Made by a program: the position numbers and the translations under genes. From Escherichia coli (GTDB lineage: Bacteria > Pseudomonadota > Gammaproteobacteria > Enterobacterales > Enterobacteriaceae): a stretch of DNA of 16,740 bases. The stretch lies in NCBI RefSeq assembly GCF_003334385.1, contig NZ_QOWN01000063.1. The stretch is one strand, 5' to 3'. This document shows positions 756 through 4,432 of the stretch, in pieces. Numbering within the stretch: the first letter of the stretch is position 1; each line of letters begins with the position of its first letter. The notes under the pieces were generated by a model. That model was not told the origin of the DNA. It did no database searches and worked only from the letters and a program-made list of their open reading frames with translations.

Positions 756-1625
<870 letters not shown>

Positions 1626-1709
1626 CTAACCCTTTGAATTTACATAGCGCAAAAAGATACCTTTCCTCATAATGTGAGCTAATTTTATGTTTCGTTTGAT
1701 GATCGGGTC

Positions 1710-1770
1710 GGTCTCGAAAACCGGAGTAGGGGCAACTCTACCGGGGGTTCAAATCCCCCTCTCTCCGCCA
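1710..1770 (+). pseudogene. tRNA-Ser(CGA) 3' fragment (serU-like; anticodon arm, long variable arm, T-arm, acceptor 3' strand and CCA), att-remnant-like
   Basis: GGTCTCGAAAACCGGAGTAGGGGCAACTCTACCGGGGGTTCAAATCCCCCTCTCTCCGCCA matches the 3' two-thirds of a class II tRNA-Ser with anticodon CGA. No 5' acceptor strand (GGAGAGA) is present upstream, so it is a fragment, not a gene. Confidence 0.6.
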
Positions 1771-2352
1771 CTTTATCAATGACTTATCTCCTGACTTCCC
1801 GCCTTGCTTTTCCTAAACAGAACAATCGTAGAATATTCTTGAAGGGTTAGATCGTCACTGTTTTCTGTTCGATACTGTGACATTCAGCACTTGATTCGCT
1901 ATGGATCTGACAGGAAGGTTTTGAGCGAAAATCTGCAGTTATTCAGTCGTTTTCTTATCGGTCACCATTATTCTTTTAGACATTGATCCTACAAAGCTGC
2001 CGCAAAGTTGGTGGTGGGAACTGAAGTTGCGTAGAGAAGGGGTCAATACCCGGAGGCAAACATGGGCTGGCAAAAGTGTAGCGGCATTAGGCGCAGCTAT
2101 TTAGCCTAGTTATGTTTTATGAAAACTTGATATCATATAAGTGTCTTACTTATTGGCTGTAAATAAGTTTTTCCTAAGGAATTGTTTCTTGAGTATCATT
2201 TGTAACTGTAACGGAATTTATAATCCTTTGCTTTATTGTTACGGTATTTTTTATCACACCCTATTTTTAGTGGTTTTTTATACTGAAGTTTGGCAAAGTG
2301 AACTTTATATACATATACTTCATCCTGGTTTCAGTTAAATTGGGTGGATGAT

Positions 2353-3096
2353 ATGGCAACTACATGTTCAGTTATATTGATTTTGGAGTCCTTTGATGTT
2401 TATTTCGGAAAAGAGAGTGTGTTTCTGGAGAGAGGTTCATCTGTACTTGTCGACTCTAGCTCTAGAGATTTTTTCCTGACATATCCTGAAAGAGTGATAG
2501 TGGCGGATTTTGGCGCTGAGTTTATTAGTCGCTATTTGAAAGCTAATAACTTAAGGGATATTTCTGATTGTAGGGAATATCCATCTTATTTAAAAATAAA
2601 CTTTGCTGACTTCAGTTTAATTAAAGGATTAATTAGTTGGGCTAATCACTGTGCTGAATACATAGAAATTTTTGATGAGTCTATTGCTTTTACATGTCTC
2701 TCTGCATTTTCTTCTGAAAAACAATTTGGAGTATTTCTGTTTGGATGTTTGAAAAGCACAGGGGCTAAAGTTAAAACGATTATTCATACGGATTTATCTG
2801 CACCATGGCGTCTTAAGGATATATCATCAAGATTATATCTCAGCGAAAGTTTACTAAAGAGGAAATTGAAAGAAGAGGGGGTATCATTCAGTAAGATCAT
2901 ACTTGATGAGAGGATGCAAATGGCTGAATATTTACTCAGCACTCGTTGTTATCCTATTAGTAAAGTAGCTAAGGTCTGTGGTTATGCCAGTGTCTCATAC
3001 TTTACTTATGTATTTAGACGTTATTTTGGTGTTTCTCCAAGTCAATACTCTCAGAGGAGTTCAGAAAGTAAAATTCTTACTCACCAGGGAATCTGA
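2353..3096 (+). CDS. AraC/XylS-family transcriptional regulator (Rns/AggR/ToxT-like size, about 247 aa) in AT-rich DNA
   Basis: C-terminal double HTH typical of AraC family (WRLKDISSRLYLSESLLKRKLKEEGVSFSKI...VAKVCGYASVSYFTYVFRRYFGVSPSQY). Strongly AT-rich codon usage unlike the flanking core genes. The ORF track starts at GTG 2344; the first ATG is at 2353 with a GGGTGG purine tract upstream. Confidence 0.75.
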   Translation: MATTCSVILILESFDVYFGKESVFLERGSSVLVDSSSRDFFLTYPERVIVADFGAEFISRYLKANNLRDISDCREYPSYLKINFADFSLIKGLISWANHCAEYIEIFDESIAFTCLSAFSSEKQFGVFLFGCLKSTGAKVKTIIHTDLSAPWRLKDISSRLYLSESLLKRKLKEEGVSFSKIILDERMQMAEYLLSTRCYPISKVAKVCGYASVSYFTYVFRRYFGVSPSQYSQRSSESKILTHQGI

Positions 3097-3100
3097 TCAT

Positions 3101-3600
3101 TGTTCTTGCCCCCTTATTTCCAGACAGGGGGTGTATCTTAAGTTAACGTTACCCGCTGACGTCGATATTCTCGCGGAGAGCGATAACCCAACGCACTGTG
3201 CGGATGGTGTTCATTGTAATGTTCGATCGCCACTGCAAGATTATGCAATGCCGTTCTTACATTCGGTTTCGGCATGAACGCGATGTAGTCTTCCTTCATC
3301 GTTTTCACGAACCTTTCTGCAATTCCATTACTCTGAGGACTGCTGATTGCCGTTGTGCAGGGCTCCAGATTCAACTCTCTGGCGAACTGCCGTGTTTCAT
3401 GCGCTCTATACGCTGAACCGTTATCTGTCAGCCACTGGATGGACTGTTCCGGTACTTTATCGCCGAAGCGTTTTTCTATCGCTCCTAACATGACATCCTG
3501 CACTGTCGCTTTATCGTAACCTCCCGTGCTTGCGGCCCAGTCTATGGCTTCACGATCGCAACAGTCCAGGGCGATTCATCTGGGCCAATCCTCGCTCATA
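3101..3600 (-). mobile_element. Truncated IS3-family (IS2-group) insertion sequence remnant
   Basis: Terminal sequence TGTTCTTGCCCCCTTATTTCCAGACAGG at 3101-3128 resembles the IS2 inverted-repeat end (TGGATTTGCCCCTATATTTCCAGACATC as recalled). It is followed by the C-terminal part of an IS2 InsD-like transposase. The inner boundary is uncertain and no second terminal repeat was identified. Confidence 0.65.
3138..3575 (-). pseudogene. IS2 InsD-like (IS3 family OrfB) transposase, C-terminal fragment only
   Basis: Translation ...[31 protein letters not shown]...[51 protein letters not shown]...[18 protein letters not shown] has the DDE-core C-terminal signature of IS2-type transposases. The frame is closed by a stop at 3576-3578; the N-terminal half and the OrfA gene are absent. 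Confidence 0.7.
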
Positions 3601-3850
3601 ACAGGCATTCACTTCAGTCATGGCAGAAAGGTATGCATGCTGGAGAAGTCGTGAAAGAAAAGAAGACTGCTGCGCCGTTTGTCGTCACGTTTATCTTCAT
3701 TGGCTATGCAAGTCGTAATACAAGGTGGGACAAAACTGAGACACATAAGGCCTCGCAATGGCTTGCAAGGCTTTACATGTTTTGATGTGGTGGGACGTGT
3801 GAGCGCAGTGTTGATGGGGTAATGCTTTGAATTAGAAGCGGATTCTTATA

Positions 3851-3895
3851 ATTCGTAATGCGAAGGTCGTAGGTTCGACTCCTATTATCGCACCA
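3851..3895 (+). pseudogene. ptwF: tRNA-Thr(CGU) 3' fragment (thrW-like; corresponds to the ptwF pseudo-tRNA of K-12), island right-end att remnant
   Basis: ATTCGTAATGCGAAGGTCGTAGGTTCGACTCCTATTATCG-CACCA matches tRNA-Thr from the anticodon loop (CGT) to CCA with one G missing near the 3' end. No 5' half is present. It lies immediately before the core yagP-pao genes. Confidence 0.7.
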
Positions 3896-4021
3896 TTAAA
3901 ATCAAAGAGTTACCCCATATTTAAATACACCACGTTTCCTCCTGTGCCGTATTTGTGCCATTGTAACCTTGGCAATTCATCAAAATACTGTTCTGACATC
4001 AGGCAGTGCAGGTGCAGACAT

Positions 4022-4432
4022 TTAAGCCAATTGCTGCCGCCATTCTTTGACGTAGTCAATCAGGGCGCGGAGCTTTGGTGCAATATTGCGACGCTGTGGG
4101 AAATACAGATAGAAGCCCGGAAATTGTGGAAGAAAGTCATCAAGCAGCGATACAAGCTTACCGCTTTCAATATATGGCCTGAAAGTTTCCTGAGTGGCAA
4201 TTGTTATTCCTCCGCCGGCAAGAGCCAGCCTCAACATCAGACGCAGATCATTAGTCGTAATCTGCGGTTCAATCGCAAGGTCGAAAGTTCTCCCGTTTTC
4301 TTCAAATGGCCAGCGATAAGGCGCAACCTCCGGGGACTGACGCCAGCCGATACACTTATGGGTATTTCCCCCGGAGGCGAGAAAGCGCTCTCCACGCCCG
4401 GCCGCAAGGATCAGGACGACGGGGGCAGGCAT
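4022..4432 (-). pseudogene. yagP: LysR-family regulator remnant, C-terminal effector-binding portion only (136 aa)
   Basis: Translation from the internal ATG at 4432 gives 136 aa with a LysR C-terminal domain signature (...GGGITIATQETFRPYIESGKLVSLLDDFLPQFPGFYLYFPQRRNIAPKLRALIDYV). No HTH domain is present. Its 5' end overlaps the paoD stop region (4411-4432). Position and length match K-12 yagP. Confidence 0.6.

Follow-up and report, generated by a model that had tools for sequence, protein, structure and literature searches.

PatE of Escherichia coli O157:H7 is an AraC/XylS protein encoded by z0321 on O-island 8 (OI-8) (review PMC10877973), and a published array study assigned Z0321 to OI-8/CP-933H. 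According to the same review, PatE activates the gadB, gadC, gadE and hdeAB genes, its element in the hdeA promoter extends from -132 to -45, and six LEE genes are negatively regulated by it; PsrB acts on the same region of the hdeA promoter and on gadE. PatE, PsrB and AppY have also been classed together as AraC-type regulators that are encoded by prophages and act on the AR2 system (PMC10057817). The patE transcript was detected and was RpoS-dependent in published arrays of O157:H7, and at the transition to stationary phase ECs0287 increased by log2 2.91 (PMC2241611). In a preprint (bioRxiv 10.1101/2025.08.01.668021), overexpression of an E. coli Nissle 1917 gene named PatE there (CIW80_12240) improved survival at pH 2.5, and AR2-5 genes were up-regulated.

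Here we compare with these systems an AT-rich gene of the AraC family found in a 16,740 nt stretch of E. coli DNA (the window), which had been described as an orphan. The gene is not an uncharacterised one, because its coding sequence was identical at 744 of 744 nt to ECs_0287 of O157:H7 Sakai, a gene at the right end of Sp1, which is annotated as a lambda-like prophage, and the same protein accession, WP_000246059.1, is encoded by EDL933 (locus 309,101-309,844 of NZ_CP008957). WP_000246059.1 is the sole annotated AraC-family gene in the EDL933 stretch from proA to beyond yagP, which includes CP-933H and O-island 8. The location, the family, the order of the locus numbers and the fact that the island has only one AraC gene allowed us to identify the gene of the window with z0321/patE with high confidence, and it is called patE below. 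The finding is thus already known, patE being a characterised phage-carried regulator.

The patE gene and its surroundings

When positions 1600-4000 were searched by megablast against the complete E. coli genomes, the annotation of the best match gave the gene order pinE, GIY-YIG gene, AraC gene, IS3-family integrase-core fragment, truncated yagP (LysR), paoDCBA, yagU, ykgJ and then ecpE, ecpD and onward; the locus is the thrW/CP4-6 integration site. The features of the region, in window positions, were as follows.

756-1529, minus strand: gene of a 'LEM-3-like GIY-YIG domain-containing protein' (PGAP), directly upstream of the patE cassette
1709-1770, plus strand: 3'-terminal 62 nt of serU (tRNA-Ser), an attR-type remnant and the left edge of the patE cassette
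1771-2048, plus strand: serU-yodB spacer (core intergenic DNA downstream of serU), inside the prophage
2049-2352, plus strand: patE leader, AT-rich (GC 0.339), with a sigma-70-like site and a GGTGGA motif
2353-3096, plus strand: patE CDS, 247-aa AraC/XylS protein, predicted activator, WP_000246059.1 (ECs_0287; very probably z0321)
3138-3572, minus strand: IS3-family (ISEc48-like) integrase-core fragment, a pseudogene, in the right part of the cassette
about 3851-3895, plus strand: 3' fragment of thrW (tRNA-Thr) with one G missing, attR of the thrW-integrated prophage

The six-frame list of open reading frames contained a 250-aa frame at 2344-3096 on the plus strand with a GTG start, and the start given by PGAP in genomes with identical DNA was the ATG at 2353, directly preceded by the Shine-Dalgarno-like motif GGTGGA, which gives a product of 247 aa. 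[quoted passage not shown]

The GC content of 2049-3096 was 0.348, compared with 0.592 for paoDCBA and with a mean of 0.517 (sd 0.069) for the whole window, and the lowest-GC sliding window of 1048 nt (GC 0.342) started at 2101; in the patE CDS, GC3 was 0.27. The gene is therefore AT-rich relative to the flanking core genes, more so than chance would give in this window, and lies at its compositional minimum, in the lowest-GC kilobase. The view that it is a horizontally acquired AT-rich regulator was upheld. Within the leader, a candidate sigma-70-like promoter (TTGGCA-18-TATACT, consensus match only) was located at 2290-2319. Promoter-like matches in 1600-3300 numbered 2, against 4.5 expected from shuffled sequence (promoter/terminator scan), and this site may be taken as only a lead to the patE promoter. 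From its composition the leader might be silenced by H-NS, as had been proposed; in published arrays of O157:H7 the gene was expressed. The leader also contains a 65-aa open reading frame (2141-2338), which we rejected as a gene because it was unannotated in every record examined; in a few short assemblies (P0017), and nowhere else, it appeared as an N-terminal fusion, which is an artefact.

ARAGORN found no complete tRNA in the window, so that the two att features are both fragments; Rfam gave only a weak partial tRNA match at 1689-1759. Positions 1709-1770 matched, without any difference, the 62 nt at the 3' end of serU as annotated in strain JM109, and positions 1771-2048 were 96-98% identical to the DNA beside the intact serU gene in nearly all complete E. 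coli genomes. This core homology broke at about 2045-2048, where the AT-rich DNA begins. On the other side of patE, the IS3-family fragment is labelled 'integrase core domain-containing protein, incomplete' by PGAP and partial ISEc48 in the Sakai record, and positions 3851-3913 were 93.75% identical to thrW and its downstream flank in Sakai (L002 4014-4077), so that the thrW 3' fragment, as the attR of the prophage, marks the right end of the island. The original prediction had placed the gene between two att remnants and had noted that no structural operon adjoins it; both observations were correct, the remnants coming from two different tRNA genes (serU at 1709-1770 and thrW at about 3851-3895) and the neighbours being the GIY-YIG gene (756-1529) and the IS3-family remnant (3138-3572), both on the minus strand.

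The GIY-YIG gene matched the PADLOC model PD-T4-3, a single-gene anti-phage defence, over its full length (2e-140), as well as PHROG 5356 (1.8e-142). From the PD-T4-3 match, this att-proximal prophage end would pair a defence gene with a regulator of host physiology.

The comparison with the O157:H7 locus (CP-933H/Sp1, O-island 8) showed that not only the protein and its coding DNA but also the flanks are the same, with the GIY-YIG gene upstream and the ISEc48 remnant downstream, in a prophage inserted at the same thrW site. The two loci differ in that the P4-like element Sp2/CP-933I, which follows Sp1 in tandem in O157:H7 (L002 Sakai 14629-27515), is missing from the window at 3880-4360, where attR abuts yagP. 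The latter gene, intact in O157:H7, is truncated in the lineage of the window (PGAP: LysR substrate-binding domain, missing N-terminus) and is followed by paoDCBA. The truncated yagP followed by paoD and the absence of Sp2 indicate that the source strain is not O157:H7.

Relationship of PatE to other AraC/XylS regulators

The best NCBIfam match of PatE was the YdeO model NF007407 (148.1 bits, residues 1-235; cut-off 348), and the GadX model NF007432 gave 110.5 bits over residues 102-239 only (cut-off 500). Because these scores are far under the curated cut-offs, PatE is a paralogue, and not an orthologue, of YdeO and GadX. BLASTP against the K-12 proteins gave full-length alignments with YdeO (35% identity), GadW (33%) and AppY (28%), with E-values from 1e-47 to 1e-34, and an alignment with GadX (35% identity) over 161 aligned positions, corresponding to query residues 98-238. 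When PDB sequences were compared by phmmer, the score was 89 bits for the GadX DNA-binding domain (3mkl), about 62 bits (about 1e-16) for CsvR and Rns, mostly over the DNA-binding half, and about 55 bits for ToxT. The sequence comparison proposed as a check on the Rns-like assignment therefore went against it, at about 62 bits for Rns and CsvR against 148 bits for YdeO. Nor is patE a sugar-catabolism regulator whose operon had been lost.

In a large protein database, the PatE cluster at 90% identity had 1788 members, for which 'AraC family transcriptional regulator' was the only source name and none was called 'PatE'; this narrow family comprises the cluster itself, relatives at 79-84% identity and 243-aa proteins at 52-55% identity. 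In PHROGs, PatE has a family of its own, phrog_1450 (1.2e-95), with its function annotated as unknown, and a PADLOC search with PatE gave no match.

An alignment of PatE with the Psr-like proteins, YdeO, GadW, AppY and GadX showed that S164, S166, L167, K169, L172 and E175, as well as a second set formed by S215, Y216, F217 and F221, were invariant. Both sets fall in helices that align with the two recognition helices of the helix-turn-helix motifs. YdeO, GadW, GadX and AppY, which are 28-35% identical to PatE, also share with it an N-terminal M-x-x-x-C-S-V-I motif together with the near-invariant recognition-helix residues, and the targets of the four regulators overlap those of PatE at gadE and hdeA. 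From the conservation of these DNA-reading helices, we infer that PatE may share targets with GadX, GadW, YdeO and PsrB. The input signals differ, YdeO being driven by EvgAS, and RpoS and growth phase being reported for patE.

The appY gene has a position like that of patE: it follows the tail-fibre genes in the lambdoid prophage DLP12 and lies at its right end. In K-12 DLP12 (L005), this 28% identical paralogue occupies 23682-24431, and it also activates AR2 genes; the position after the tail-fibre assembly genes, near the right end of the prophage, is a recurring site of AraC-type cargo genes. The 243-aa PsrA/PsrB-like prophage regulators, which share 52-55% identity with PatE along about 95% of its length, are cargo genes as well. 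The homologues of this size that we traced lay in lambdoid prophages, with the Q antiterminator on one side and the lysis cassette on the other, whereas patE lies in the b region; their position fits the Psr family, and they are candidate PsrA/PsrB-like proteins.

The AF2 model of PatE (mean pLDDT 83) consists of an N-terminal beta/alpha domain followed by seven helices in residues 136-244. Foldseek found CsvR, Rns and ToxT to be the only full-length solved structures matching it (E 3e-11 to 1e-7). Superposition of the model on the GadX DNA-binding domain 3mkl gave a TM-score of 0.90-0.92 (rmsd 1.2-1.5 Å, 43-44% identity), but the full-length TM-scores to Rns and ToxT were low (0.40, rmsd about 19 Å) despite the good E-values, which we attribute to the two domains being oriented differently with respect to each other in the predicted model. 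Rns, CsvR and ToxT thus have the two-domain architecture of PatE and a similar length, but their identity to it is only 18-23% and their targets differ. As a weaker possibility, by analogy with its fold relatives Rns and ToxT, PatE might sense a fatty-acid-like ligand.

The assignment to the Rns/CfaD/AggR/ToxT/VirF group made in the original prediction consequently stood for the overall fold, where CsvR, Rns and ToxT are the nearest full-length structures, and failed for the sequence, where the closest proteins are YdeO, GadW, AppY, GadX and the Psr-like regulators. 'Rns-like' is a fair description of the architecture, and both the sequence and the published function place PatE with the acid-resistance regulators.

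Distribution and possible origin of the patE cassette

Of 5426 complete E. coli genomes, 658 (about 12%) carried the gene. At least 80% of its length was present in 654 of these 658, and identity was at least 99% in 659 of 660 patE records from complete E. coli genomes, so that patE is not a truncated or degraded pseudogene in most genomes. In all cases traced to the cassette, patE forms part of a block of 1.87 kb (1708-3574), which starts with the 62 nt of the serU 3'-end and 278 bp of core DNA and ends at 3574, inside the IS3 remnant. The block was 99.0% identical in E. coli IAI1 and in phage ev099. The IAI1 cassette belongs to another prophage, inserted at the lambda att site by ybhB and bioA, and again occupies the right end; in ev099 patE lies in the b region, between the tail-fibre assembly genes and int, a classic site for cargo genes. 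Proteins with 98.4-99.2% identity to PatE are encoded by the lambdoid phages ev099, mEp332 and PhiR70_1, and PatE was carried at an identity of at least 98% by 4 of 50,697 phage records. Given its place in the b region, its GC content of 0.35 and the small number of phages that carry it, patE is a lambdoid prophage cargo gene ('moron').

Three plasmid records of 35-64 kb (NZ_CP044147.1, NZ_CP146678.1 and CP088862.1) contained 88-100% of the cassette at an identity of at least 99.5%; judging from their sizes, they may be phage-plasmids, or else prophages that were excised or misassembled.

The left part of the cassette has the layout expected for the attR of a serU-integrated prophage together with the neighbouring chromosome, suggesting capture by aberrant excision. 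According to this scheme, an AT-rich islet would once have been situated beside serU in an ancestral chromosome, and a lambdoid prophage integrated at serU would have excised aberrantly, taking along the islet together with attR (the 62-nt serU 3'-end) and the 278 bp of core DNA. The 1.87-kb block would then have spread by recombination among lambdoid phages whose present integration sites include thrW and the lambda att site. When a chimeric query joining an intact serU gene to the patE leader was searched, no such junction was found in the 5426 complete E. coli genomes; coverage did not exceed 90%, and the matches always began at the truncated tRNA. We put forward tentatively, with slightly less than even confidence, that the patE module is a natural product of specialised transduction captured from the chromosome beside serU.

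Probable function of PatE in the source strain

The evidence taken together indicates that patE is very probably a cargo gene at the att-proximal right end of a thrW-integrated lambdoid prophage and that it encodes an activator of acid resistance. As a regulator of the YdeO/GadW/GadX/AppY type, PatE would act in trans on the core genome. From the literature, its gene would be expressed in an RpoS-dependent manner on entry to stationary phase, and the protein would raise the transcription of gadE, gadB and gadC, that is, of the glutamate-dependent acid-resistance circuit, and that of the periplasmic chaperone operon hdeAB through the -132 to -45 region of the hdeA promoter. In LEE-positive strains it would lower LEE expression, and the outcome would be a better survival at low pH. 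The acid-resistance genes had been suggested as a place to look for its targets, which fits the published function of PatE. Since the protein is identical, it would be expected to do the same job in the source strain, although this is not an O157:H7 strain.

We considered it highly improbable that patE has fallen silent or is decaying and no longer has a function in the source strain. Its surroundings are indeed degraded, the tRNA genes and yagP being truncated and the IS3 element reduced to a fragment, and AT-rich foreign DNA is often silenced by H-NS, but the open reading frame is uninterrupted and shares 100% identity with the experimentally studied allele, identity is at least 99% with essentially no truncations in about 650 genomes, and the published arrays found the gene to be expressed in O157:H7 under RpoS dependence. 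A role in the phage life cycle, in which PatE would control the prophage rather than host genes, would agree with the exclusive occurrence of patE within lambdoid prophages or phages and with its dedicated PHROGs family (phrog_1450). Against such a role, patE lies in the dispensable b region by the att site, in a block that has bacterial chromosomal DNA at its start and an IS remnant at its end, the homologues that align with PatE along the full length regulate acid resistance in the host, host targets have been published (PMC10877973), and the gene has been kept intact in heavily degraded prophages such as Sp1, all of which makes this role extremely unlikely.

A similar weighing applies to the view of PatE as an activator of fimbrial or virulence genes of the Rns/CfaD/AggR type, with its target pilus operon elsewhere, such as ecp at a distance of 8 kb. 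The size and the AT-richness of the gene fit that group, the matches to full-length solved structures are confined to CsvR, Rns and ToxT, and the phmmer E-values for Rns and CsvR are about 1e-16. These matches reach about 62 bits, mainly in the DNA-binding half, but those to YdeO (148 bits) and to GadW along the full length are far stronger, and the PatE regulon given in the review PMC10877973 comprises acid-resistance and LEE genes and no fimbrial genes. In addition, neither the cassette nor the prophage end contained fimbrial genes, the prophage end and the core genes yagP, pao, yagU and ykgJ lie between patE and ecp, and copies of the cassette were present elsewhere in chromosomes and in sequenced phages, far from ecp. 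Neither our analysis nor the publications consulted gave support for a link to ecp or to other fimbrial genes, and we regard this reading of PatE as very unlikely.

The role of PatE in acid resistance has already been published, and what our analysis adds concerns the gene and its carrier. The patE gene is not specific to O157, as it is present in 12% of the complete E. coli genomes and in isolated, sequenced phages. It is always found in the same small cassette starting with a piece of the serU locus, which hints at the route by which phages acquired it, and it adjoins a PD-T4-3 anti-phage defence gene. The anatomy of the cassette and the adjacent defence gene are minor additions, and they open no long-standing question. 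Together with AppY, PsrA and PsrB, PatE is one of several phage-borne AraC regulators that are plugged into the core acid-resistance network of E. coli, and through this network it bears on gastric survival and on the infectious dose.
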